A stretch of DNA of 64,000 nucleotides from Alphaproteobacteria bacterium. GTDB lineage: Bacteria; Pseudomonadota; Alphaproteobacteria; RF32; CAG-239. The stretch lies in the NCBI GenBank assembly GCA_045593845.1, contig JAZNXK010000011.1:11111-75110 (forward strand). Reading direction: 5' to 3'. Both the position numbers and the translations under genes were made by a program. The notes beneath the pieces were generated by a model. It made no database searches. It worked only from the letters and a program-made list of their open reading frames with translations, and was not told the origin of the DNA. How positions within the stretch are numbered: the first letter of the stretch is position 1; each line of letters opens with the position of its first letter. This document shows, in pieces, positions 1 to 40,576 of the stretch.

Positions 1-3000
1 GCCACTACCTGTAGTTGTTGTACTGGTAACGGTTGCTCCTATTGAATCGTTGGTTGTGCGTGTGGTTGCCAAACTTAGTGTCGCGGTATAATTGGTAATA
101 GTATCCCCAGTAAAGGTTGTAGCAGTGAATTGATCAGCCCAATTATTAATCGGTCCAACATTTACCGTTGTAGTGCTACTGCTAACAACAGTAGTATCGG
201 TAAACTTTTTATTTAGTAAGCTTGATGTTAGTGCAAGCTGCAACTGGCTTTCGGTATTTCCATTGTATATAATCTGAATTTTGTCTCCATTATTTAAGTT
301 ACTTAAGCTACCCAAAGAATTGATGTTATTCAATGTGATAGTGCCGGATGAAGAATTTGTAGTTTTGAATAAGTCCGCAGTTTTATTAGTAAAATCAACG
401 TCAATATTGAATATTGTTGAGGAACTTGGATTGAAACCATAGAAATTATATGTGAGAACGCTGTCGTTGGCTGTATTAAATGTGAATCCTCCTGATGTAG
501 TGATAGTGCGGTTTGTAACATCATTGTATAGATTGAGAATACCTGTAGAATCTCCTGTTATCTCGCCAGTACTTTTAAGATTGTTATAGGTTTGAATTTC
601 TCCGTAAAAAGTCATAACACCATTATTTGTAACCGATAGATTTACAGGTTTATTGGAGTTAATATCTACCATTGTATTACTTCTTGTATTGTTTTGAAAC
701 AGGGTAGTTCCGTTATCAGCTCTAATTAAAATGTAACTGTTATTTGCCCCCTGTATTGCACCACCATTGTATTTGCTTGAGGCATGGTTGTTTGTAAAAG
801 TACTATTGGTTACAATGAGAACACCTTCGCCCATTACATAAATCGCGCCAGCACTATGTGTATCTGAGTTGTGATCAAATATAGAGTCATTTATATAAAC
901 CGTTCCTCCCCAAATCATAATTGCTCCGCCTGAATATTGATCATCGTAGGTATTTTTATTGTAGCTAAACGTACTATTTGAAATAGTTGCTCCTCCAGTA
1001 GCATGAATAGCTCCTCCTCCCCATCTGCTGGTATTGCTACTAAAGGTGCTGTTTTCAACGATAAAATTTTTGGAAGCAGATATTGCACCACCATACTTAG
1101 TTGCTGTATTTCCTATAAATGTGCTACTCGTTATCGCAGCATATTTCGAAAGCCCTACGGCTCCAGCACTTTCCGTTGTTGTATTGCTTGTGAATAGCAC
1201 ATTATTTACGTTTAGATTTCCATCGCTTTTGCTAATCGCTGCACCGCTACTTGAACGACTGCCGTTTTTAATTGTCATATTTTGCAAATTGAGTGTGGAA
1301 TTACTATTGTTAACTGTAAAACCACCTTTGTTGTTGAGGTCTAGGGTTGAGCGGTTGGATCCGGAAACAGTACCAGAAACGGTGAGTGTTCCGCTGACAA
1401 CTCCAATTTCGGTTGTGCTTGGAACAACATAACCAAGAGTGTAAACAGCTGTTGCGTCGTTGGTTGAAAATGTTCTGGTTTTTGGAGAAGATGCATGAGC
1501 AATGGCAACAATTGGCTCCACGTCAGGTGTAGAAACATCGCTTAATGTAAAAACGATAGAATCATTGCTAGTGCGTGTGCTACCAAGTCCAATTCCACTT
1601 ATATTTGCTGTTCCTATAGTAACCAAATCTGTCCAATAATTGTCTTCTTTAATACTACTGTAATTGATAGTGCTTAAACTGCTTACTGAAGAGCTTAGAG
1701 CCAGTTGCAAACTACTATTGCTATTAGTATTTGAAATGACTTGAATTGTATGTGTTCCCGCGGACAAATTCAAAAAATTAAGTTTATTCAGCGTTAGTGT
1801 GCCAGAAGATGTATTTGTGGTTTTGAAAACATCAGCTGTATTATTTGAGCTGCTAACGTCTATGTTGAATAAGGTTGAAGCGTTGGGGTTAAATGTCAAA
1901 AAGTTATAGGTCATAACACTGTTGTTAGCGGTATTAAATGTGAATGCACCAGATGTCGATACATCAGAATTCTTAATCTCGTTATAAAGGTTCAATGTCG
2001 AGCCGGAAGTGCCAGAAATAGCGGTGTCGAATCCGGAAATACCTGTGATATAGTCATAGAAAGTCATGGTACCGTTATTGGCAAGAGTAAGATTCAAAAC
2101 ACTGCCAGATCCATTTTGATAAATGGCTTGTTTGTCTGTTCCGGCTGAATCAACATAGTTGTTTTGGAACAATGTTGTGCCATTATCGGCTTTGATGGTG
2201 TTGGCGGAGCTTTGGAAATAGATTGCACCACCTTGAGCAATTCCGCCAACTGCACGGTTGTTAATAAATAGGTTGTTGGTGATGGTATTTGAAGTTGTAC
2301 CATAAATTGCACCACCTTGGGAACGCGTGGTACCGCTGGCAATGTTACCGCTAAAGGTGTTGTTACTGATGGTATTTGATCCATATGCATAAATCGCACC
2401 GCCAGAGCTATATGTACCGCTGGTAATATTACCGCTAAAAGTGTTGTTGCTGATGGTATTATTGGGAGATGATATATAAATTGCACCACCAATACTGTAG
2501 TTGCCTTTCGTAATATTACCGCTAAAGATGTTGTTACTGATGGTATTGGGATATGATATATAAATTGCACCACCCCTGGCATTATTTGTTGCGCTGGCAA
2601 TGTTACCGCTAAAGGTGTTGTTACTGATGGTATTTGATGCAATTGCATAAATCGCGCCTCCGCCACCATTGAAACTCATGACATAGTTGTTATTGAATGT
2701 ATTGTTGCTGATGGTGGTGTTAGATGCATAAATCGCACCTCCATAGGCTTGAGAGGCGCTGGCAATGTTGCTGCTGAAGGCGTTGTTACTAATGGTGCTG
2801 GTGATATTTGTATAAATCGCACCTCCATAGGCATAATTTGAGGCGCTGGCAATGTTGCCAGTGAAGGAGCTAAAACTGATAGTGTTGCTTCCGCCTATTA
2901 CATAAATTGCACCACCATAGATGGTAGAGGTGCTTATAGAACTGACAGTGTTTGATGTAAACAAGACATTGCTTATATTTAGATTTCCATATTTTTGATA

Positions 3001-5001
3001 AACTGCTGCACCATAAGAGCCCGAACCATTTTTTATGGTCATATCGGATAGATTTAGTGTTGAATCTGCTTTCGTAACATCAAATCCTTTCTTGCCGTTC
3101 AAATTTAGGGTTGAGCGGCTTGAAGCACCGATTACTCCATTAACTGTCAATGTCCCTACAACAGGGCCAACCCCTGTAACAGTGTTGTCAACATAGCCGA
3201 GAGTATATATGGAATTAGCACTGTTTGCAGTAAATGTTTTGACGGAATTTGTCATATCGTGAGCAACAACAACTATCGGGTCTTCCACAATTGTTTTGCT
3301 GGTTCCACCGTTTGCAAAGACGATGCTATCATTGGTAGTATATAAAGAAATTGTTTTTATTATTCTTCCGGTCCCTGTTGCGGTAATTGTTGTGGAAAAA
3401 GTGTCGTTCCAATTGTTATTTGCTTTGACTGTGCTTGATATCGTGACTGTTCCATTGCCTGTTGAGTATTGATTTAGCAAATTCTGTGATAAGGAAAGTT
3501 GCAAATTGCTATTCGGTGTATCAATAACTTTAATAATAGTAATTTCACTTGGATTATTTCCATTATAAAGATTTATGTTATATAGATTGATTGTGCCGGA
3601 AGAAATTTTGTCAGTTATGAATTGGTCTGCGGTTTTATTGCCTAGATTAATATCAATATTGAATAAGGTCGAAGCGTTGGGGTTGAATGTCAAAAAGTTA
3701 TAGTCCATAGTATTGCTATCGGCGGTGTTGAATGTGAATGCGCCGGAAGTTGAAACATCAGAATTTTTAATTTCGTTATAGAGATTTAAGATTGATCCAG
3801 AAGTACCGGAAATGACAGTATCGAATCCGGAAGTACCAGTGATATAGTCATAGAAAGTCATAATTCCATTGTTGGCAAGGGTAAGATTTAATGTGTTTGT
3901 CGCACCTGCTTGGTTTATAGCTTGTTTGTCTGTTTCGTAGCCAACGTAGTTGTTTTGAAAGAGTGTTGTGCCTGCGTCTGCTTTGACAGTGTTACCAGAA
4001 CCATAAAAATAAATAGCACCACCGATGCCTGCATGGTTGCCTATGAAGATATTGTTGGTAATGGTGCTTGAGTTGGTTGAATAAATTGCACCACCGTATG
4101 AACCGCTTATGTTACTACTGAATGTATTGTTGCTGATGATGTTTGAGCTACCGGTTATCGCTCCACCTTGAGATCTTGCCTCATTATTTGTAAAAATGTT
4201 GTTGCTGATTGTACTAGAACTACCGGTTATCGCTCCACCATAGGCTGATTGATTAGAAGTAAAAATGTTGTAAGTTATTGTGTTCCATTTTAATGAGCGA
4301 ATTGCACCTCCTGTGCCATCAAGAGCAGAAAGCCCATCATCTGTAATCGCTATAGTTTTATTACCGATAAATGTGTTATAGCTGATTATATTATTACTAG
4401 CCATACTGATAGCGCCGCCATAAGCATTGCTATTTCCCCAACTGTTGATATTAGTAGTTATGTATGATGATTGGTTATTGATAAATGTATTTGATGTAAT
4501 TACATTGCTCATTCCCCAAAGATTAATCGCGCCACCTCCGGAGGCCGCACCATTGGTATATGCATGTCCTATTTTACCATGAGCTATATTGTCGGTAAAA
4601 GTGTTAGAACTAATTATGCTACCGTTGCCTTGAATATATATTGCGCCGCCACGAACATGCGAACTTGTAGAGAGGGCTTGGTTACCTGTAAATGTGCTGG
4701 AGGTAATGGTGTTGGAATTCGAATACAAATAAACGGCACCGCCATATGGTGTCACTCCTGAGCTAGTATTATTTAAGAACGAACTGCGAAAAATAGTGGT
4801 TTTGCCACCTCGGTTGATAGCAGCTCCATTTGTTGTTTTGATCAAATTTTCATAGGTTTGATCACAATAGCAACCTGTGCCGCTGCAGGGGCAGGTTTGG
4901 GAATATGCATTTTTAGGGGAAACGAGACAAATAGCGACAACGCCCAAAGCACAAGCCTTAAGCGCTATACGCAAAGTATGTAGTAAAAGATTTTTAGTCA
5001 T
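1..5001 (-). CDS. Giant Pmp-type (GGA[IV]/FxxN) repeat surface adhesin, autotransporter-passenger-like. N-terminal 1667 codons only; continues past the left edge.
   Basis: My own translation of the minus strand from ATG at 5001..4999, with SD-like GAGGG just upstream. It begins MTKNLLLHTLRIALKACALGVVAICLVSPKNAYSQT (signal-peptide-like). More than 20 units follow of the form ..YGGAIY..(S/T)ISNNTFSGN.. The frame stays open to position 1, so there is no stop in the window. Track ORFs in this region (330..524, 1341..1538, 2094..2669) are all in a different minus frame. Confidence 0.85.
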   Translation of the reverse strand, partial: MTKNLLLHTLRIALKACALGVVAICLVSPKNAYSQTCPCSGTGCYCDQTYENLIKTTNGAAINRGGKTTIFRSSFLNNTSSGVTPYGGAVYLYSNSNTITSSTFTGNQALSTSSHVRGGAIYIQGNGSIISSNTFTDNIAHGKIGHAYTNGAASGGGAINLWGMSNVITSNTFINNQSSYITTNINSWGNSNAYGGAISMASNNIISYNTFIGNKTIAITDDGLSALDGTGGAIRSLKWNTITYNIFTSNQSAYGGAITGSSSTISNNIFTNNEARSQGGAITGSSNIISNNTFSSNISGSYGGAIYSTNSSTITNNIFIGNHAGIGGAIYFYGSGNTVKADAGTTLFQNNYVGYETDKQAINQAGATNTLNLTLANNGIMTFYDYITGTSGFDTVISGTSGSILNLYNEIKNSDVSTSGAFTFNTADSNTMDYNFLTFNPNASTLFNIDINLGNKTADQFITDKISSGTINLYNINLYNGNNPSEITIIKVIDTPNSNLQLSLSQNLLNQYSTGNGTVTISSTVKANNNWNDTFSTTITATGTGRIIKTISLYTTNDSIVFANGGTSKTIVEDPIVVVAHDMTNSVKTFTANSANSIYTLGYVDNTVTGVGPVVGTLTVNGVIGASSRSTLNLNGKKGFDVTKADSTLNLSDMTIKNGSGSYGAAVYQKYGNLNISNVLFTSNTVSSISTSTIYGGAIYVIGGSNTISFSSFTGNIASASNYAYGGAIYTNITSTISNNAFSSNIASASQAYGGAIYASNTTISNNTFNNNYVMSFNGGGGAIYAIASNTISNNTFSGNIASATNNARGGAIYISYPNTISNNIFSGNITKGNYSIGGAIYISSPNNTISNNTFSGNITSGTYSSGGAIYAYGSNTISNNTFSGNIASGTTRSQGGAIYGTTSNTITNNLFINNRAVGGIAQGGAIYFQSSANTIKADNGTTLFQNNYVDSAGTDKQAIYQNGSGSVLNLTLANNGTMTFYDYITGISGFDTAISGTSGSTLNLYNEIKNSDVSTSGAFTFNTANNSVMTYNFLTFNPNASTLFNIDVSSSNNTADVFKTTNTSSGTLTLNKLNFLNLSAGTHTIQVISNTNSNSSLQLALSSSVSSLSTINYSSIKEDNYWTDLVTIGTANISGIGLGSTRTSNDSIVFTLSDVSTPDVEPIVAIAHASSPKTRTFSTNDATAVYTLGYVVPSTTEIGVVSGTLTVSGTVSGSNRSTLDLNNKGGFTVNNSNSTLNLQNMTIKNGSRSSSGAAISKSDGNLNVNNVLFTSNTTTESAGAVGLSKYAAITSSTFIGNTATKYGGAISASKNFIVENSTFSSNTSRWGGGAIHATGGATISNSTFSYNKNTYDDQYSGGAIMIWGGTVYINDSIFDHNSDTHSAGAIYVMGEGVLIVTNSTFTNNHASSKYNGGAIQGANNSYILIRADNGTTLFQNNTRSNTMVDINSNKPVNLSVTNNGVMTFYGEIQTYNNLKSTGEITGDSTGILNLYNDVTNRTITTSGGFTFNTANDSVLTYNFYGFNPSSSTIFNIDVDFTNKTADLFKTTNSSSGTITLNNINSLGSLSNLNNGDKIQIIYNGNTESQLQLALTSSLLNKKFTDTTVVSSSTTTVNVGPINNWADQFTATTFTGDTITNYTATLSLATTRTTNDSIGATVTSTTTTGSG

Positions 5002-5060
5002 TTACCCTCGTTTCCAACACCTGCGACAATCCCTTGCCGCTATTTTTCCATTACTGTGTG

Positions 5061-5089
5061 AGTATACCATTTTTTGAGAGTAAAAACAA
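5061..5089 (-). promoter_or_regulatory. Candidate sigma70-type promoter of the adhesin gene
   Basis: Minus strand reads TTGTTT (5089..5084), a 17-nt spacer, then an extended -10 TGgTATACT (-10 at 5066..5061). It lies about 55 nt upstream of the ATG at 5001. Confidence 0.45.
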
Positions 5090-5101
5090 TAAAAATCGTG
5101 C

Positions 5102-5329
5102 CGAATCGGCCTCTGCGACTCGAACGAATCGGAAAACGAATCCCAGCAAGGCTTTTAAACGAATCGAAAATTTTAAAAAGTTGTGGAAAACTAACGATTT
5201 ACACTGAAAATAGAGTCTTTTTTTATTTTTCGAGTCGGCAATATGTTGTTTTTTCTAGCTTTTCGAGTCAATATATTTTTTAGTTTTTGACCTTTTTGGG
5301 AGGTTTTTGATTGCGATTCGTGTGAGTCA
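5102..5329. promoter_or_regulatory. Array of 9 CGA-N-TC(G) palindromic motifs upstream of the adhesin promoter
   Basis: CGAATCG at 5102, 5125 and 5160. CGACTCG at 5116. CGAATCC at 5137. CGAGTCG at 5231. CGAGTCA at 5264. CGATTCG at 5314. TGAGTCA at 5323. Two longer direct repeats TTTTCGAGTC(gg)CAATAT start near 5227 and 5260. Confidence 0.4.
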
Positions 5330-5368
5330 GGTATTGGGTTTTAAAAGGATTTAAAAATTGATTTTTTA

Positions 5369-5402
5369 TTAAAAAAATTCTGCCTCGCTTGGAGACAGAA
5401 TT
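5369..5402 (-). terminator. Intrinsic terminator downstream of fabG
   Basis: Stem aattctgcctc (5376..5386) pairs with gagacagaatt (5392..5402), with one G-T pair. On the minus strand it is followed by a T-run (plus-strand A-run 5371..5377). Confidence 0.6.
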
Positions 5403-5465
5403 TTATTGACTAATCGGTAGATCCCTTGACCAAAAACTGACGTTTTTGGAGGGATGACGATAAAA

Positions 5466-6203
5466 TTAAATCATAGCCATGCCGCCGTTGATGTTGATAG
5501 TCTGACCGGTAATGTATTGTGCTTCGTCACTGGCCAAAAAGACAACAACATTGGCAATATCTTGTGCTTCTCCCAATTTTGCTTCGGGTATCTTGGCAAG
5601 CAAAGCGGCCTTTACATCTTCTGGCAAAACGTCTGTCATCGGTGTGCGGATAAAGCCGGGAGCAATAGAATTGACCGTAATACCGCGAGAGCCGACTTCT
5701 TGTGCCAAGCATTTGTTCATGGCAATCATTCCCGCTTTTGATGCGGAATAATTGGCTTGTCCGGCGTTGCCCATAACACCTACAACCGAGGCAATACCGA
5801 TAATACGGCCGAAACGACGTTTCATCATACCGCGAACAGCTGCTTTTGCAAGTTTGAAACCGGCTGTGAGGTTTACATCCAAAACCAACTGCCAATCTTC
5901 GTCGCTCATGCGGATAAACAGATTATCTTTGGTCAAACCGGCATTGTTTACCAAAATATCAATGCGACCGAATTTAGCTTCAACGTCTTTTACTAATTGA
6001 GAAATGGAATCTGAATCTGTCAAGTCGGCAGTGAAAATTTCTACCCTGTCACCGAGTTCTGCTTTCAGTTTTTCCATGTTGTTGGTTCTGCAATCGGTCA
6101 AAGCCAAGGTTGCGCCCTGTGCATGCAAAGTGCGAGCAATTTTGTCGCCCAAACCGCCGTTTGCTCCGGTAATAAGTGCAACTTTATCTTTTAATTCAAA
6201 CAT
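5466..6203 (-). CDS. fabG: 3-oxoacyl-ACP reductase
   Basis: SDR motifs TGANGGLG, NNAG and YSASKAG. 245 aa. Located immediately downstream of fabD. Confidence 0.9.
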   Translation of the reverse strand: MFELKDKVALITGANGGLGDKIARTLHAQGATLALTDCRTNNMEKLKAELGDRVEIFTADLTDSDSISQLVKDVEAKFGRIDILVNNAGLTKDNLFIRMSDEDWQLVLDVNLTAGFKLAKAAVRGMMKRRFGRIIGIASVVGVMGNAGQANYSASKAGMIAMNKCLAQEVGSRGITVNSIAPGFIRTPMTDVLPEDVKAALLAKIPEAKLGEAQDIANVVVFLASDEAQYITGQTININGGMAMI

Positions 6204-6223: not shown

Positions 6224-7186
6224 TTATAAATTATTTGCCAGTTCTTCAATTTCTGAAGGTGTGCAAATTGAGGTTGTGTTTATATCTTTGTAGCCGCGCT
6301 TTATCATGCCAGATAAAACTTTTCCGGCTCCAAGTTCATAGATATCGGTTATGCCTTGTGAATGCATATAGGCTATTGTTTCGCGCCAACGAACAGAACC
6401 AGTGATTTGCTCAATCAAATGCTTGATTATCTCCTTTGATTCCGTGATAGGTTCGGCCAATACATTGGCTATTAGAGGAATTTCGGCATTGTTGGCCTGT
6501 ACTTTCATAAAGGCGCGAGCCATGGTCTCGGCCGCCGGTAACATAAGAGGACTATGAAACGGTGCACTAACGGGCAATTTTATGCATCGTTTGGCACCAA
6601 ATTCTGCTGCAATTTCTACCGCTTTGTCAACTGCGGGCATATGTCCGGATATAACAATTTGTCCTTCGGCATTATCGTTGGCGGCAACACAAATATTGTC
6701 CTTGTCAGCGCATGCTTCTACCAAAGCTTGGACATCATGATAAGAAAGTCCGATAACCGCAGCCATACCGCCAACTCCCAGAGGAACAGCCTTTTGCATA
6801 GCCTCGCCTCTGGTGCGTAACAAACATGCCGTATCTTCCAGAGAGAACACCCCTGAAGCACAGGCGGCAGAATATTCTCCCAATGAGTGCCCCGCTACAA
6901 AAGTTGCTTTGTCTTTGAGTTTTATTCCAAAGTCTTTTTCCAAAACATTGACAACAGCCATGGAAACTGCCATTAAAGCCGGCTGTGCGTTTATGGTCAT
7001 AGTCAGCTCATAGTCCGGTCCTTCGGTCATTAAGCGATATAAGTTCTGATTGAGTGTATTATCAACTTCTTGAAAGATTTCCTTTGCAGAGGCGAAGTTG
7101 TCAGCCAATTCTTTTCCCATTCCTACAAATTGTGAGCCTTGTCCGGGAAAAACAAAAGCGTTTTTCATAAAAAACCTCTTATCCAT
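6224..7186 (-). CDS. fabD: Malonyl-CoA:ACP transacylase
   Basis: Motifs FVFPGQGSQ and GHSLGEYSA. The more likely start is the second ATG at 7168, which has AGAGG 6 nt upstream. Confidence 0.9.
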   Translation of the reverse strand: MDKRFFMKNAFVFPGQGSQFVGMGKELADNFASAKEIFQEVDNTLNQNLYRLMTEGPDYELTMTINAQPALMAVSMAVVNVLEKDFGIKLKDKATFVAGHSLGEYSAACASGVFSLEDTACLLRTRGEAMQKAVPLGVGGMAAVIGLSYHDVQALVEACADKDNICVAANDNAEGQIVISGHMPAVDKAVEIAAEFGAKRCIKLPVSAPFHSPLMLPAAETMARAFMKVQANNAEIPLIANVLAEPITESKEIIKHLIEQITGSVRWRETIAYMHSQGITDIYELGAGKVLSGMIKRGYKDINTTSICTPSEIEELANNL

Positions 7187-12156: not shown

Positions 12157-13131
12157 ATGAAAAAGATAATTTGGGTGTTGCTTGATGATCGTATGGGTAG
12201 TGTCGGTCAAGCAAAAGGCATATTGCAAGAAATGTCTGAAGATTTTGATATTATTGAAAAAAAGATTGTTTATAATAAATTTGCCAAGCTTCCGAATTTT
12301 TTGCGTGGTAAATTCTTTCTGTTAGGTGTCGATAAATCCAAATCCGATGATTTGAAAGGTTGTCCGGATATTGTGCTTTCAATAAGCCGCAGAACAACGC
12401 CTATTGCTTTATGGATTAAAAGACGATCCAAGGGCAAGACTAAAATTGTGCAACTTATGTTTTCCGGCAAGTATGGCCTTAAGGATATTGATTTGCTGGT
12501 TATGCCCGAGCATGACAGAGGCAAAACATCTTCAGATAATGCATTTTATATTGTCGGATGCCCTCATAGAATCAATGAAGCTACTTTACAAAACGCAAAA
12601 GAACAATGGCAAGATGTTTTTTCCAAGTTACCCCGTCCTCTCACTGCTGTTTTAGTAGGCGGAGCAATTAAAAACAAGCCATTCTCTAATGAAAATGCTA
12701 AAAAATTGGCTGATGAAATTGTTAATATTCACCAAAAAGTAAGCGGCTCCGTTTTAATTACCACTTCCAGAAGAACAGGAGAAAGCGCACAAAGTATAAT
12801 TATGGAAAAAATCAAAGATATTCCTACTTATACTTTTTTGTGGGGTGAAAAAAAGGAAAATCCTATTTTGGGATTTTATGCCTGTGCTGACAGGATTATT
12901 GCAACCGGTGACTCTGTTTCTATGGTCTGCGAAGCTTGCGGTAGCGGAAAAGATGTTATGATTTTTGAAGGAAAACACTGGCTGACAAAAAAGCATTTAG
13001 CTTTTGTAAAATCTTTGGTAGACAATGGTTATGCCGTGCGAATCGACAATGAGAATGCTGTTGATTTTATTCCTCAAAAGAAATTACATAATTCTTTGGA
13101 TGTTGCAAAAAAAATTGAAAGTTTGGTTTAA
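12157..13131 (+). CDS. ELM1/GtrOC1-family (DUF1022) putative glycosyltransferase
   Basis: Family-typical blocks: IWVLLDDRMGSVGQAKG, PDIVLSISRRT, LLVMPEHD, LPRPLTAVLVGG, LITTSRRT and TGDSVSMVCEA. Confidence 0.7.
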   Translation: MKKIIWVLLDDRMGSVGQAKGILQEMSEDFDIIEKKIVYNKFAKLPNFLRGKFFLLGVDKSKSDDLKGCPDIVLSISRRTTPIALWIKRRSKGKTKIVQLMFSGKYGLKDIDLLVMPEHDRGKTSSDNAFYIVGCPHRINEATLQNAKEQWQDVFSKLPRPLTAVLVGGAIKNKPFSNENAKKLADEIVNIHQKVSGSVLITTSRRTGESAQSIIMEKIKDIPTYTFLWGEKKENPILGFYACADRIIATGDSVSMVCEACGSGKDVMIFEGKHWLTKKHLAFVKSLVDNGYAVRIDNENAVDFIPQKKLHNSLDVAKKIESLV

Positions 13132-13823
13132 TACAGCATTTCTTTTCGCCTTACTACAACTTTTTGATACATTTTGCCGTAATAAGTTGTTTTTTTCCAT
13201 TCAAACTGACCTCTTGCCGAGGAAAAATCTTTAATCTCATTTTCCCATAAATTTTCGGCAAACGGCTGATATAAACGGTTAAATGCTTGAATAATAAAGC
13301 GAAATGGATTCCAAATTGCTGGTTTATTATAATCTATAAAAACGATTTTTCCTGCAGGAGTTATTGTTGAAAGCAATGTATTTATTAAATTTGTTTTTGA
13401 AGGTTGCGGCATTTCATGCAAAAGATTATAGCATATAATAACACTATATCTTTGGTCTGTTTTAGTAGTAGCATCTCTGTTTATAAAATTCATTGATGGA
13501 TATAAATAACGATATTTGTTGTGGGTTCTTCTTAATTGTGTCGCACTGATATCAACAATATCAAATTCGCCGTAAATTCCCAGTCTCTCTGCAACTTTTG
13601 CCAATTGATTACCAAAAGTAACCCCTACTTGCAGGGTTTTTTGTTGAGGATAAATCTCTTCCAAACATGCACTTATAAGTCTTTTATGAGCTCCTAGCGT
13701 TATTAAGTTCAGCAACCAATCTCTGTCTATCAGCTTGCATAAAAAACTATTTTCATACAACCAGCTGTAATATTCTTTTTGATACGGAGGAATAGTATTT
13801 GTTTTGTTTATGCTTTTTTTCAT
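13128..13823 (-). CDS. rquA: RquA-like class I methyltransferase-fold protein (candidate rhodoquinone biosynthesis enzyme)
   Basis: MTase motif I is degenerate: TLQVGVTFG, with Gln in place of Asp and no GxGxG. Other blocks are WLLNLITLGAHKRL and IVFIDYNKPAIWNPFR...PFAENLWENEI. These match my recollection of RquA-specific features; the call rests on memory only. Confidence 0.5.
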   Translation of the reverse strand: MKKSINKTNTIPPYQKEYYSWLYENSFLCKLIDRDWLLNLITLGAHKRLISACLEEIYPQQKTLQVGVTFGNQLAKVAERLGIYGEFDIVDISATQLRRTHNKYRYLYPSMNFINRDATTKTDQRYSVIICYNLLHEMPQPSKTNLINTLLSTITPAGKIVFIDYNKPAIWNPFRFIIQAFNRLYQPFAENLWENEIKDFSSARGQFEWKKTTYYGKMYQKVVVRRKEMLY

Positions 13824-36605: not shown

Positions 36606-37515
36606 TTTCTACCTTCATTATTTGTAGGGCGTTAGCAATTATATTTGATAGTGATTTATAAAAAGTCAGCTGGTTTTTTGTTTGTTGATACCAGAACTTA
36701 ATATTTTGATTTTCAAGAATTTCTTTTTGATTTTCAATCTCTTTTATTGCTGAATTAAAGTCATTATTATTTACAAACGACCTAATTTTTTCTAAAAACT
36801 CAGTTTTATCATATACTTGAGCACTGTTTTTATCATTAATTGTTGAAATTTTTACATATTCATTAACCTTGGAGGTTATGCGTTTTTTCCAATCTTTTTC
36901 TATAACAGGCTTGGTTTCTTCCGTATAAATTTTATTGAAACTGTCAATTAATGATTTGTCGGAAATAAAATTTATTGAGCAGTGAGAATATATAAAATCA
37001 ACATCTTTGGAAATGGAGCTTATGTTGTCAGCTAATATTTTCAGTGCTTCTGCTTCCATTTCGCAGGTTTGTCCGTGTAAAATTGTGTCTTTTATCAGCA
37101 TGGCTGAAGTTAATAATAAAGCACCGTTATTAGATGTTTTGGCGAGTTTTTGGGTCTGGTTTTCAAGATTGCGAAGTTGATTGTTTATTGCAAGTATCTC
37201 GCTCGCATTTACTTTTGATGCATTGAAATGATCAACATTTTTTTGCAACAAATCAAATTTTTCTCGTTCGTTGAGTAGTGCGTTTGAGAGAGTGTCAATG
37301 TTGCGACTCAAAATTACAATTTTGTTTTTCAAATTTTCTTGGTCATCAGAAATTCGAGATGAAGTATTTATTTGTTTAGTTATAATTTCGGGTTTATACC
37401 AAAAGAAAAATAGTGTAATTATAACTGCTGTAAAGAGAATAAATTCAAAAGTTTTGAATAAATATATCAAAATTTTGCTTGATTTGGAAGTATTTGATGA
37501 TTTATTTTTAACCAT
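36562..37515 (-). CDS. Coiled-coil membrane protein, candidate alphaproteobacterial Mic60 (mitofilin-domain) homologue
   Basis: One N-terminal TM helix (ILIYLFKTFEFILFTAVIITLFFFW) and a long heptad-rich middle region. The C-terminal block is FVNNNDFNSAIKEIENQ...NIKFWYQQTKNQL.F.KSLSNI, resembling the mitofilin-domain pattern. It is divergent from tsaD. Confidence 0.4.
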   Translation of the reverse strand: MVKNKSSNTSKSSKILIYLFKTFEFILFTAVIITLFFFWYKPEIITKQINTSSRISDDQENLKNKIVILSRNIDTLSNALLNEREKFDLLQKNVDHFNASKVNASEILAINNQLRNLENQTQKLAKTSNNGALLLTSAMLIKDTILHGQTCEMEAEALKILADNISSISKDVDFIYSHCSINFISDKSLIDSFNKIYTEETKPVIEKDWKKRITSKVNEYVKISTINDKNSAQVYDKTEFLEKIRSFVNNNDFNSAIKEIENQKEILENQNIKFWYQQTKNQLTFYKSLSNIIANALQIMKVENARNDSDENPTDME

Positions 37516-37563
37516 GTTTATTTTCCTTTGTAAAAAACTTTTATTGTTTTATTATGAAGGTTA

Positions 37564-38667
37564 ATGGTTAAAATTTTATCAAAAGAAAAAGTTATGATTG
37601 TTTTAGGAATAGAAAGTAGTTGTGATGAGACAGCGGCGGCAATAGTGAATGATAAAAAAGAAATTTTATCTGAAGTCGTTTTATCTCAAGAGGAACATAA
37701 AGTTTTTGGCGGGGTTGTGCCGGAAATTGCGGCAAGATCACATTTGGATCATATTGATGACATAATTGCTCAAACATTTGAACGAGCAAAAATTAGTATG
37801 AATGATATTGATGCGGTTGCTGCAGCATCAGGCCCTGGATTGATAGGAGGGGTTGTTGTTGGTGTTATGGCCGCCAAGGCCATGGCTTTAGCTTTGAACA
37901 AGCCTTTTATTGCCGTAAATCATTTGGAAGGGCATGCGTTGGTTTCGAGACTTACTAATGATGTTAATTATCCCTATTTGTTATTATTGGTATCCGGCGG
38001 ACATTGTCAAATTTTGGTGGTCAAAGGTCCTGGTGATTATCAGAGACTGGGAACAACGATTGATGATGCGGCAGGAGAAGCGTTTGATAAAGTTGCAAAA
38101 ATGCTAAAGCTAGGTTATCCGGGGGGACCTATGGTGGAAAAAATGGCTGCAATAGGTGATGAAAACAGGTTTTGCTTACCCCATCCGTTAAAGGGTTCAG
38201 GCGATTGTAATCTGTCATTTTCAGGATTAAAGACTGCTGTCAGAAAAATTATCGAATCGTACGGAGATAATAATATTGAGGAGGTTGTTTTGCCCAGAAA
38301 AGATGTCGCAGATATTTGCGCGTGTTTCCAAAAAACAGCTTGCGAATGTTTGTTGGATAAACTTGAAATGGCAATAAATTATTTTAAGAAAAATTATCCT
38401 GAAGGAAAAGACGTTGTTGTTGCCGGTGGTGTGGCGGCAAATGTTTATTTGCGCGAAAAAATGCAAAATTTGGCAAGCAAAAAAGGATTGTTTTTTGCAG
38501 CTCCGCCGTTGCGGTTGTGCACAGATAATGGAGTTATGATTGCATGGGCAGGGTTGGAAAGATTGCAAAAGGGCTTTATTGATGATTTGGACTTTAAGCC
38601 CAGGCCGAGATGGCCTTTGGATTTTGAGGCGCCAAAGGCTGCCGGAGCAGGAGGAGTAAAAGCATGA
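37564..38667 (+). CDS. tsaD: tRNA t6A37 N6-threonylcarbamoyltransferase TsaD
   Basis: Motifs LGIESSCDETA, NHLEGH and SGGH. The more likely start is MIVLGIE at 37594. Confidence 0.95.
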   Translation: MVKILSKEKVMIVLGIESSCDETAAAIVNDKKEILSEVVLSQEEHKVFGGVVPEIAARSHLDHIDDIIAQTFERAKISMNDIDAVAAASGPGLIGGVVVGVMAAKAMALALNKPFIAVNHLEGHALVSRLTNDVNYPYLLLLVSGGHCQILVVKGPGDYQRLGTTIDDAAGEAFDKVAKMLKLGYPGGPMVEKMAAIGDENRFCLPHPLKGSGDCNLSFSGLKTAVRKIIESYGDNNIEEVVLPRKDVADICACFQKTACECLLDKLEMAINYFKKNYPEGKDVVVAGGVAANVYLREKMQNLASKKGLFFAAPPLRLCTDNGVMIAWAGLERLQKGFIDDLDFKPRPRWPLDFEAPKAAGAGGVKA

Positions 38668-39299
38668 GAAAAAGTAAAGAAATTTTGGAGATTATGCAAA
38701 TTTTTGCCGAAGCAAATCCTGAACCGAAAAGCGAGCTTGAATATACTAATGCATACACACTTTTGGTTGCGATTATTTTATCGGCACAAAGCACTGACAA
38801 AGGGGTTAATAAAGCAACAAAAGAACTTTTTAAGGTTGCTGATACGCCGCAAAAAATGTTGGCTTTGGGTTTGGATGGTTTGAAAAATTATATAAAAACC
38901 ATAGGACTCTTTAATAATAAGGCAAACAGTATTATAAGCATGAGCCAGAGTTTGGTTGAAAAGTTCGGAGGTGAAGTTCCTTGCGGACAGACAGAATTGG
39001 AAAGCTTGGCCGGAGTAGGGCATAAAACAGCTAATGTTTTGAGAAATGTTTGGTTTGGAAAACCGACAATGGCGGTGGATACGCACGTTTTCAGGATTGC
39101 ACATCGGCTTGATTTCAGCCAAGGAAAAGATGTTAAAGAAGTTGAGAAAGATTTATTAAGTGTTTTACCAGAAAAATATTTAATGTATGCCAATCATTGG
39201 TTGGTTTTGTTCGGCAGATATGTTTGCAAAGCACAAAAGCCGGATTGTGAAAAGTGTCCGATTTCAAAATATTGTTATTGTCAAGATAAAAGAATCTAG
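38664..39299 (+). CDS. nth: Endonuclease III
   Basis: HhH-GPD motif LAGVGHKTANVL. C-terminal Fe-S cluster motif CKAQKPDCEKCPISKYC. Confidence 0.9.
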   Translation: MRKSKEILEIMQIFAEANPEPKSELEYTNAYTLLVAIILSAQSTDKGVNKATKELFKVADTPQKMLALGLDGLKNYIKTIGLFNNKANSIISMSQSLVEKFGGEVPCGQTELESLAGVGHKTANVLRNVWFGKPTMAVDTHVFRIAHRLDFSQGKDVKEVEKDLLSVLPEKYLMYANHWLVLFGRYVCKAQKPDCEKCPISKYCYCQDKRI

Positions 39300-40576
39300 A
39301 TTTTGCACCAACCTTTAGCAGCACGTGACCATAGAAGATTGTTGTTTTGGTTCGGATAGGCAATAATGCCGCAAATTGTCGGTGTTTTGCAACCGGTAGT
39401 TTGCGGGGTAGAATAGGGAAGGTTATTAAGTTTGCATCGAGCCATGTCGGCAAAAATTCTTGCTTCCATATATTTAGCATTAAACCCGAAATCATCTGAC
39501 CATAAAACTTTGGCTTTAGGATTTGATATTTGTGAGAATATTTCTTGGTGTTGAGGTAAAATGAAAGATTTTTGATGAATAATATTTTTAAAATCATCAA
39601 AGATTATCGGGTTGTTCCATCCGCCGCCAAAAACCAAGAAATATTCCGGTGTTTTATAGTGTAAGTATTTCAAACTGAAAGCCATAATGTAGGCGCTGAA
39701 AAATTCTGCTGTTCTTACTTTGTCGTTGAAAGGTATAGAATCGTCTTTGAGTGGTGAAAAATCATACCAAGCAGGATCGGCAGATTTTGGAGGTGCTTGT
39801 AAAATAAAGTTTTGTTTTTTGGCATTTAAAACACTGTTATTAAACAGGTTGTTTAATAAAGTTGGATTTATTTTTCCTTGCTTTCCATATTTTCCATCAA
39901 AATCGCAGGATTCATTTTTTTCTGTGCGTGTGAGTGTATCAACAAAATGGTTGAAAGGACCACAGTCCCATCCGATAACTTGATTGTTGTGTATAGAAGC
40001 TATATTTCCGGTGTTGCCGCCATTGCAGAAAATTACAGATTTTAATTTTAATGCTTGGCATAAATGTAAGTTGTGTATAGGTGCAAGCGGGGCGGCTTCG
40101 CCGCCATTTATTATATCATCAGAACGAAAGTCAAATACAACAGGTGTATTTGTTAAATTACTAAGCTGCTGTCCGCTGCCGATTTGCAAAGTATTGGGTT
40201 CACGTTTTTTTCCGGCAATAGATGGTGGAAAGTGGTAACAAGTTTGTCCGTGAAAACCTATAGCGGTAACACTTTGTGGAGATATACTGTTTTTCTCAAG
40301 CATAGTATTATAAGCGGAGGCAACCAAATGAATATATCGATTATGTAAATTATTAAAAAAATCGGATTGAGCATGATGGACAAAGTTTATATCACCATTA
40401 TTATTGATGAGTACTTGTTTTAATTTGCGAAAATCTTCGGCAATATCCATAGGAATAGGCATACTATAACTGCATATATCTTTGATAGAATCGTTATCAA
40501 AGCTTGTCAAAACGACATCAATAGCATCGAGAGAATTTCCGGTCATAATGCCGGCATAAAGGTTTTGTTTGCTCAT
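39296..40576 (-). CDS. anmK: Anhydro-N-acetylmuramic acid kinase
   Basis: N-terminal GIMTGNSLDAIDVVL, and GGGWNNP near the C-terminus. 426 aa. Confidence 0.8.
   Translation of the reverse strand: MSKQNLYAGIMTGNSLDAIDVVLTSFDNDSIKDICSYSMPIPMDIAEDFRKLKQVLINNNGDINFVHHAQSDFFNNLHNRYIHLVASAYNTMLEKNSISPQSVTAIGFHGQTCYHFPPSIAGKKREPNTLQIGSGQQLSNLTNTPVVFDFRSDDIINGGEAAPLAPIHNLHLCQALKLKSVIFCNGGNTGNIASIHNNQVIGWDCGPFNHFVDTLTRTEKNESCDFDGKYGKQGKINPTLLNNLFNNSVLNAKKQNFILQAPPKSADPAWYDFSPLKDDSIPFNDKVRTAEFFSAYIMAFSLKYLHYKTPEYFLVFGGGWNNPIIFDDFKNIIHQKSFILPQHQEIFSQISNPKAKVLWSDDFGFNAKYMEARIFADMARCKLNNLPYSTPQTTGCKTPTICGIIAYPNQNNNLLWSRAAKGWCKI

Follow-up and report, generated by a model that had tools for sequence, protein, structure and literature searches.

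Background

The polymorphic membrane proteins (Pmps) of the chlamydiae, such as C. trachomatis PmpD and C. pneumoniae Pmp21, carry paired GGA(I,L,V)/FxxN rungs of ~24-30 residues that build a regular beta-helix, followed C-terminally by a less regular beta-helical middle region; they are exported as autotransporters and function in adhesion (PMC2997323, PMC10715098). The repeats themselves mediate adhesion in Chlamydia (PMC2997323), and folding has been suggested to begin in the middle region, which would then act as the seed for the helix of the repeats (PMC10715098). Here we describe a gene for a very large protein with the same kind of repeats, found on a 64,000-nucleotide stretch of contig JAZNXK010000011.1 (assembly GCA_045593845.1, positions 11,111 to 75,110; hereafter the window) and belonging not to Chlamydia but to a gut-type alphaproteobacterium. 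The gene, here called the giant gene, fills the minus strand of window positions 1-5001 and runs off the left edge, and we consider it probable that it encodes a very long, multi-module classical (type Va) autotransporter adhesin.

The giant protein resembles the chlamydial Pmps in its paired rungs, in its regular beta-helix and in the possession of a less regular beta-helical region C-terminal to each set of repeats, and by analogy it may share both their export route and their adhesive role. The differences are nevertheless substantial. A chlamydial Pmp combines a single repeat region with a single middle region of ~200 aa and a barrel, whereas the giant protein has three or more consecutive repeat-plus-middle units, and its middle domain (MID) is ~310 aa long and, unlike the chlamydial middle region, does not match the Pfam model for the Pmp middle domain. 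On present sequence grounds the protein should not be called a Pmp in the strict sense, given the unmatched middle-domain model and a barrel that would lie outside the window.

Three further groups of proteins offer points of comparison. Among solved structures, pertactin (1DAB) and Ag43 (7KO9) come closest to one module (probability 0.99-1.00) and also to MID alone, and a single module has approximately the length and fold of the whole pertactin passenger; the sequence identity is only 11-16%, however, and both are single-unit passengers without Pmp motifs. Fap2 and RadD of Fusobacterium nucleatum, a gut- or mucosa-associated bacterium, are likewise very long single-chain beta-helical passengers with a type Va barrel, Fap2 comprising 3,744 residues in its mature form and reaching ~47 nm as a rod (PMC12397386). 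The likeness to these adhesins is one of description; Fap2 was absent among the listed structural matches, and no MID/Pmp module periodicity has been described for it. The third group is formed by metagenomic proteins with the same MID domain (P0001, P0258, P0324 and P0241-P0256), whose full-length identity to the giant protein is 34% at most, while the fragment P0287 reaches 55%. One of these relatives, P0244, is at 6,201 aa much longer than Fap2 (3,744 aa mature; PMC12397386).

The giant gene and its Pmp repeats

Machine translation of the minus strand from position 5001 to 1 gave 1667 codons with zero stops. The other five frames over 1-5001 contain 75-182 stops each, with a longest open run of 193 codons, and the chance of 1667 stop-free codons, computed with the giant gene's own base composition, is ~10^-47. 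The start of the gene is well defined, since an in-frame TAA immediately precedes ATG 5001. A preliminary description of this DNA had read the same single uninterrupted frame by hand, and had attributed its absence from the open reading frame (ORF) listing to the lack of a stop codon in the window. Both statements hold: the listing has only ORFs of 64-191 aa over 1-5001, because the lister by design omits ORFs that run off the source. The features of the gene are as follows.

1..5001, minus strand: 5' part of the giant gene, 1667 codons in a stop-free frame, with the 3' end beyond the window's left edge
4900..5001, minus strand: predicted Sec signal peptide, aa 1-34, cleavage after AYS, read by eye from the translation
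4864..4893, minus strand: Cys cluster CPCSGTGCYC, aa 37-46 (Cys at positions 17, 25, 37, 39, 44 and 46 of the protein)
3991..4866, minus strand: module A Pmp-repeat region, aa 46-337, nine GGA/FxxN rungs
3046..3990, minus strand: module A MID, aa 338-652, MID profile score 347 bits
2200..3045, minus strand: module B Pmp-repeat region, aa 653-934, nine rungs
1282..2199, minus strand: module B MID, aa 935-1240
730..1281, minus strand: module C Pmp-repeat region, shorter, aa 1241-1424, four canonical rungs
1..729, minus strand: module C MID, aa 1425-1667, cut by the window edge, covering profile positions 2-243 of 320

The putative signal peptide and the cysteine-rich stretch named in the preliminary description can both be read in the translation. 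As read by eye, the N-terminus comprises a basic n-region, a 12-residue hydrophobic core and an A-x-S site (MTKNLLLHTLRIALKACALGVVAICLVSPKNAYS, followed by Q as the first residue after the predicted cleavage). The four Cys of CPCSGTGCYC are the sole Cys in the mature 1,630 residues and all lie within 10 residues at the extreme N-terminus. Type V passengers tolerate large disulfide loops poorly, and the confinement of the four mature Cys to one 10-residue cluster fits this constraint.

A regular-expression search of the giant protein identified 22 GGA[IVLM] motifs, each with an FxxN 5-25 residues later, where 0.25 would be expected from composition, so that the more than 20 GGA(I/V)-plus-FxxN units claimed earlier were indeed present. 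The spacing between GGA/FxxN units is 24-39 residues, and FxxN was found 35 times in total (9.2 expected from composition). The Pfam family Chlam_PMP (PF02415) matched the protein with an E-value of 7.5e-22 (75.5 bits, cut-off 20.6), Pfam Beta_helix matched with an E-value of 2.8e-10, and the NCBIfam model POMP_repeat scored 22.7 bits against a cut-off of 15. By these profile matches, the giant protein is assigned to the PF02415 Chlam_PMP repeat superfamily. At E≤1, Pfam gave nothing beyond Chlam_PMP, Beta_helix and a sub-threshold Kelch_1, and hence neither a two-partner secretion (TPS) nor an RTX model was matched: the N-terminal TPS domain (PF05860) was not detected at this threshold, and no RTX nonapeptide or Ig-like (BIg, cadherin) repeats were found by Pfam in the 1667 available residues.

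Super-modules within the giant protein

The 22 rungs are grouped in three blocks, with 369 and 380 residues between them, and the protein is organized into at least three tandem super-modules of ~590 aa (A, aa 46-652; B, aa 653-1240; C, from aa 1241 up to the window edge). In each module, a Pmp-repeat region precedes a non-Pmp MID domain of ~310 aa. This grouping of the repeat units into at least three super-modules with a conserved non-Pmp middle domain was overlooked in the preliminary description. A BLASTP comparison of the whole protein against itself returned the identity match only, and the modules emerged after the protein had been cut into thirds, the pairwise comparison of which gave 49-54% identity between A and B and 40% between B and C. 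Inside the repeat region of module B, there is in addition an 87-bp tandem period at 2272-2638.

A profile of the MID domain scored 347, 329 and 236 bits on the three window copies (the last being cut by the window edge), scores that are partly circular as the seed alignment includes these copies. Independent members of the family match the profile at E-values down to 0. Conserved motifs of the domain are INLYN, ID.D..NK.AD.F.T..SSG.ITL, LQLAL, N.W.D.F, TT.T.NDSI and ST.DL.G..GF.

DNA identity between the modules is 50-72%, and the duplication that gave rise to them is, judging from this divergence, old. Third-codon identity is 0.35-0.55 even where amino-acid identity reaches 0.9 (aa 376-436 versus 974-1034). 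This low value in the most conserved block rules out recent gene conversion between modules, and argues that the block has been kept by selection. Modules A and B diverge the most at about aa 456-520 (A) and 1054-1114 (B), regions that appear to match low-confidence loops in the structural model of MID. Slipped-strand phase variation was considered and rejected, as positions 1-5500 hold neither homopolymers of at least 8 bases nor simple-sequence repeats.

The MID family and its C-terminal barrels

The MID domain had no match in Pfam, NCBIfam or the sequences of the PDB. Searching 1.84 billion representative proteins with the MID profile gave only 475 proteins at E≤1e-3, of which 168 reached E≤1e-30, with giants of 4,000-6,200 residues as the top matches, and domain mapping of the 168 family proteins revealed 1 to 9 full MID copies per protein. 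By profile search, the MID domain and the PMP-MID architecture are thus present in hundreds of unnamed metagenomic proteins. Neither the domain nor the iterated PMP-MID architecture is curated in Pfam or NCBIfam, and sequence comparison revealed no homologue of solved structure. The literature searched held no account of multi-module Pmp-type passengers, which is not proof of absence.

A first protein search gave 449 matches, most of which share only the generic repeat half, and a scan with the full ORF of species-representative genomes and JGI metagenomes returned distant Pmp-repeat proteins only (Methanobrevibacter, 34%; two JGI contigs, 28-30%). Pmp repeats also occur in the filamentous-haemagglutinin-type protein P0113 and in archaeal Ig-domain surface proteins; the proteins of such other architectures have the generic repeat half only, without MID.

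With 55% identity over 535 aa, P0287 is the closest relative and has the same PMP-MID-PMP order, but it is a fragment of 576 aa from a contig of 3 kb. It was the one protein obtained in a word-index search with the MID profile, a search dominated by low-complexity candidates. The 3' end of its gene (527-2257 of locus L012) overlaps a convergent Fe-ADH gene, and P0287 may result from truncation or chimerism in the assembly, or represent a copy in decay. P0258 has a P-M-P-M architecture (34% identical over 1,112 aa), and the nearest of the complete relatives, P0269 and P0330, are organized as PMP-MID followed by a C-terminal domain that we designate B2 (below). A strict alternation of PMP and MID, as in the giant protein and in P0001, P0028, P0258, P0378 and P0324, is a minority layout. 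The profile used for the PMP half derives from the modules of the giant protein itself, and it responds poorly to divergent repeat regions in other proteins. The largest giants of the family are mostly MID-only tandems of ~310-aa units, with 6-9 copies and a divergent barrel; P0244 (6,201 aa), P0241 (5,236 aa) and P0242 (5,083 aa) each have nine full MID domains.

A recognisable C-terminal domain was found in 103 of the 168 MID proteins, and in all 103 it is of the barrel type, canonical in 19 and of the B2 type in 84. Among those with a canonical barrel, P0019 and P0030 each show a single PMP+MID module ahead of the Pfam autotransporter beta-domain PF03797. P0071 has the same PMP+MID+barrel layout, with PF03797 in its precomputed annotation and a barrel match to our own profile, and P0257 likewise carries PF03797. 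P0001 is a complete gene of 2,245 aa inside its contig, with two modules, a linker, a PF03797 barrel (E 1.1e-34) and a terminal KYEF. B2 is a conserved domain of ~380 aa without a Pfam match, present in P0241, P0244, P0021, P0006, P0269 and others. It aligned to the canonical barrel with an hhalign probability of 93.3% (E 2.7e-7, 212 columns), and the canonical profile in turn matches the solved barrel of the autotransporter EstA. On this profile evidence B2 is homologous to the canonical autotransporter barrel, though divergent from it, and it follows that all MID members with a recognisable end are autotransporters. B2 looks like an uncurated barrel subfamily, and is often followed by a short basic tail.

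Predicted fold

An AlphaFold2 model was made of aa 560-1300, a stretch that extends from the last part of MID-A through the complete module B into module C. The model (mean pLDDT 87.1, pTM 0.79) consists almost wholly of short, periodic beta-strands. Three matches were obtained against the PDB with Foldseek at E <0.001, pertactin (probability 1.00, E 5.2e-4) and two Ag43 structures, while SepA, EspC, EspP, Hbp, IgA1 protease and UpaB followed with weaker E-values. Each of these matches is the passenger of a classical type Va autotransporter. PL6 alginate lyases and phage tailspike depolymerases were also retrieved (E 0.01-0.5, probability 0.1-0.5). According to the model, the fold of the module is a right-handed beta-helix of the autotransporter-passenger type. 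MID modelled alone had a pLDDT of 77.8, and its best matches were pertactin, Ag43 and the Ssp autotransporter.

Structure prediction of one module had been proposed beforehand as a check, and its outcome, together with the Chlam_PMP match, agrees with the earlier view of the product as a Pmp-repeat, beta-helical surface protein of the autotransporter-passenger type.

A model for export and function

The combined results suggest a model in which the Sec signal peptide would take the giant protein across the inner membrane, after which a C-terminal beta-barrel, lying outside the window and predicted from the relatives, would insert into the outer membrane. The beta-helix rod would then be extruded and folded from the C- to the N-terminus on the cell surface. 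In every module, MID sits at a position analogous to that of the Pmp middle region, and we therefore propose that each MID nucleates the folding of the repeat block N-terminal to it, in analogy with the chlamydial proteins. The variable, low-confidence loops of each MID may be the ligand-facing parts. Scaled from Fap2, in which 2,905 helix residues correspond to 47 nm (PMC12397386), the 1,630 residues would form a rod of ~26 nm. An adhesive function is suggested by the Pmp precedent (PMC2997323), by the adhesin-type proteins among the best structural matches and by a presumed host-associated setting, which is discussed with the neighbouring genes.

Several observations weigh against this model. 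The barrel is predicted from relatives that are at most 55% identical, the closest one being a fragment, and the giant protein's own C-terminus lies beyond the window. In the remaining 65 of the 168 MID proteins there is no barrel; most of these look like obvious fragments. The Pfam model of the Pmp middle domain, ChlamPMP_M, had no match at E≤1 in the whole protein or in 11 MID sequences. An identification of MID with a solved autochaperone (IcsA, 3ML3) was tried and rejected, the structural match not being significant (E 2.9).

The vectorial folding of a classical autotransporter starts at its one C-terminal autochaperone region, which also helps to drive secretion. A bolder interpretation, which we put forward tentatively and regard as doubtful, is that MID is an iterated folding nucleus, placed every 300-600 residues, that acts as a ratchet and lifts the length limit of type Va secretion. 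The MID proteins would on this interpretation form a distinct, uncurated modular class, common in gut-associated bacteria. Passengers of up to 6,201 aa with nine MIDs could be pulled out and folded module by module, and every MID would also display its own variable loops.

It is also conceivable, though improbable, that the giant protein has the same Pmp-type beta-helix and reaches the surface by another route, such as type I secretion, two-partner (type Vb) secretion or some other anchor, with no barrel of its own. The position of its C-terminus outside the window leaves room for such a route, as do the 65 barrel-less members of the MID family and the presence of Pmp repeats in many architectures, including P0113 and the archaeal Ig-domain surface proteins. 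Those non-autotransporter architectures share only the repeat half with the giant protein, however, and not MID, and all MID proteins with a recognisable terminus end in a barrel. A classical Sec signal, as read by eye, is moreover present, and neither an N-terminal TPS domain nor RTX repeats were detected.

We find it less likely still that the beta-helix is the scaffold of an enzyme or toxin (a polysaccharide lyase, a depolymerase or a protease carrier) instead of an adhesin. The Pfam Beta_helix match and the presence of PL6 alginate lyases and tailspike depolymerases in the Foldseek results are compatible with such a role, but the latter come after the autotransporter passengers in the ranking and are accounted for by the generic fold. 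Neither Pfam nor NCBIfam revealed a catalytic-domain family in the 1667 residues, and the three-fold repetition of whole units is typical of stalk and adhesin proteins, not of enzymes.

The fabD-fabG neighbourhood

The preliminary description had placed the giant gene directly after fabD-fabG and a terminator, which agrees with the arrangement found here; the two fab genes serve as context only.

5466-6203, minus strand: fabG, identity confirmed
6224-7186, minus strand: fabD, identity confirmed
5367..5404, minus strand: intrinsic-terminator-like hairpin with U-tract, ending the fabD-fabG unit, dG -15.2 kcal/mol
5002..5366, minus strand: upstream non-coding region of the giant gene, with a GAGGG ribosome-binding site, an extended -10-like element and a CGAYTCG cluster

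As called, the fabD ORF is 320 aa, while all close homologues are 314 aa, and the true start is probably ATG 7168. In the upstream region of the giant gene, GAGGG is located just upstream of the ATG and the extended -10-like element, TGGTATACT, lies ~60 nt upstream of ATG 5001. Six CGAYTCG motifs occur within 220 bp (5102-5320), between the fabG terminator and the start of the giant gene. Eleven are found in the whole window, a count that alone is not beyond chance. The cluster could represent binding sites for a regulator of the giant gene, and the roles of the upstream elements in promoter function and regulation are putative assignments from their motifs and positions.

Six loci from the closest relatives available were compared, three with a FabD 93% identical and three with a FabD 82% identical to that in the window. 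The genes that follow fabD-fabG are GNAT acetyltransferases, ppa and ubiE in one group and nth and tsaD in the other, all of them convergent and unrelated. The locus of the closest relative (L002) is collinear with the window over 11.7 kb (79.8% nucleotide identity), and the collinearity ends exactly at the fabG stop (window 5465, L002 11704), the giant gene being absent at this place in L002. An nth-tsaD pair is present in the window at 37496-39304, 32 kb away. As synteny stops at the fabG stop and nth-tsaD lies at such a distance, the position after fabG is, from these loci, best described as a recurrent rearrangement point in the lineage, at which the giant gene is lineage-specific.

The preliminary description had interpreted the giant gene as an accessory insertion into a fabD-fabG-acpP-fabF cluster, and had named fabG-acpP adjacency in relatives as the test. 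This interpretation fails for the relatives compared, since acpP or fabF follows fabG in none of the six loci and there is no acyl carrier protein (ACP) motif anywhere in the window. We therefore hold it very unlikely that an accessory element was inserted between fabG and acpP and split a core fatty-acid cluster. The absence of the giant gene from the nearest relative, where synteny breaks off at the fabG stop, would suit an insertion, as would the 465-bp non-coding region with its own promoter-like signals between the giant gene and fabG. The different convergent genes in each group of relatives and the displaced nth-tsaD pair argue instead for a junction that has been rearranged repeatedly. 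A foreign origin of the gene by composition was likewise rejected, as its GC content (38.9% vs 35.8% for the rest of the window) is just 3 points higher and gives no clear foreign signature. No tRNA genes are present in the window, no integrase or other mobile-element gene and no flanking repeat were noted, and nothing marks the giant gene as a mobile insertion.

That the giant gene is a pseudogene in decay, or that its long frame stems from misassembly of repeats, is the least probable explanation of all. In its favour are the repetitive DNA and the relative P0287, a fragment of 576 aa whose gene call overlaps another on a 3-kb contig. Against it, the giant gene runs for 5 kb without a stop or frameshift, its modules are just 50-72% identical in DNA, which makes assembly collapse unlikely, the MID motifs are under strong purifying selection and the start signals are intact.

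Other genes in the window relate to the lifestyle of the organism. The gene at 13128-13823 (minus strand) matches the rhodoquinone methyltransferase RquA (NCBIfam, 209 bits against a cut-off of 175), and this match points to an anaerobic, fumarate-respiring host bacterium. Next to rquA, at 12157-13131 (plus strand), is a 324-aa ORF without an NCBIfam match, the L002 orthologue of which carries PF06258, a Mito_fiss_Elm1-like domain, an unusual annotation. The earlier attribution to an AT-rich alphaproteobacterium is in line with a window GC of 36% and with the FabD relatives, which are metagenome-assembled genomes of Alphaproteobacteria. These relatives, the presence of rquA and the sample codes of several relatives, which we take to be those of a study of ruminant-gut metagenome-assembled genomes, together suggest a host-associated setting.

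Conclusions

Gut and rumen Alphaproteobacteria of this type are, to our knowledge, accessible almost only as metagenome bins, and we know of nothing on their attachment to hosts, mucus or other microbes. The giant gene is a concrete candidate, by its sequence, for the attachment or surface interaction of such bacteria. The analysis defines a conserved, uncurated domain with no solved homologue, which is repeated up to nine times in proteins of more than 6,000 residues, and every MID protein with a recognisable C-terminus has an autotransporter barrel. The gene thereby points to an undescribed modular class of autotransporters, with a mode of secretion predicted from its relatives. If MID is merely a spacer, the finding is that of a routine, though very large, adhesin. 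If MID serves as a checkpoint in folding or secretion, it would account for the ability of a barrel-based, energy-independent route to handle far longer passengers, and would also offer a modular scaffold for surface display.

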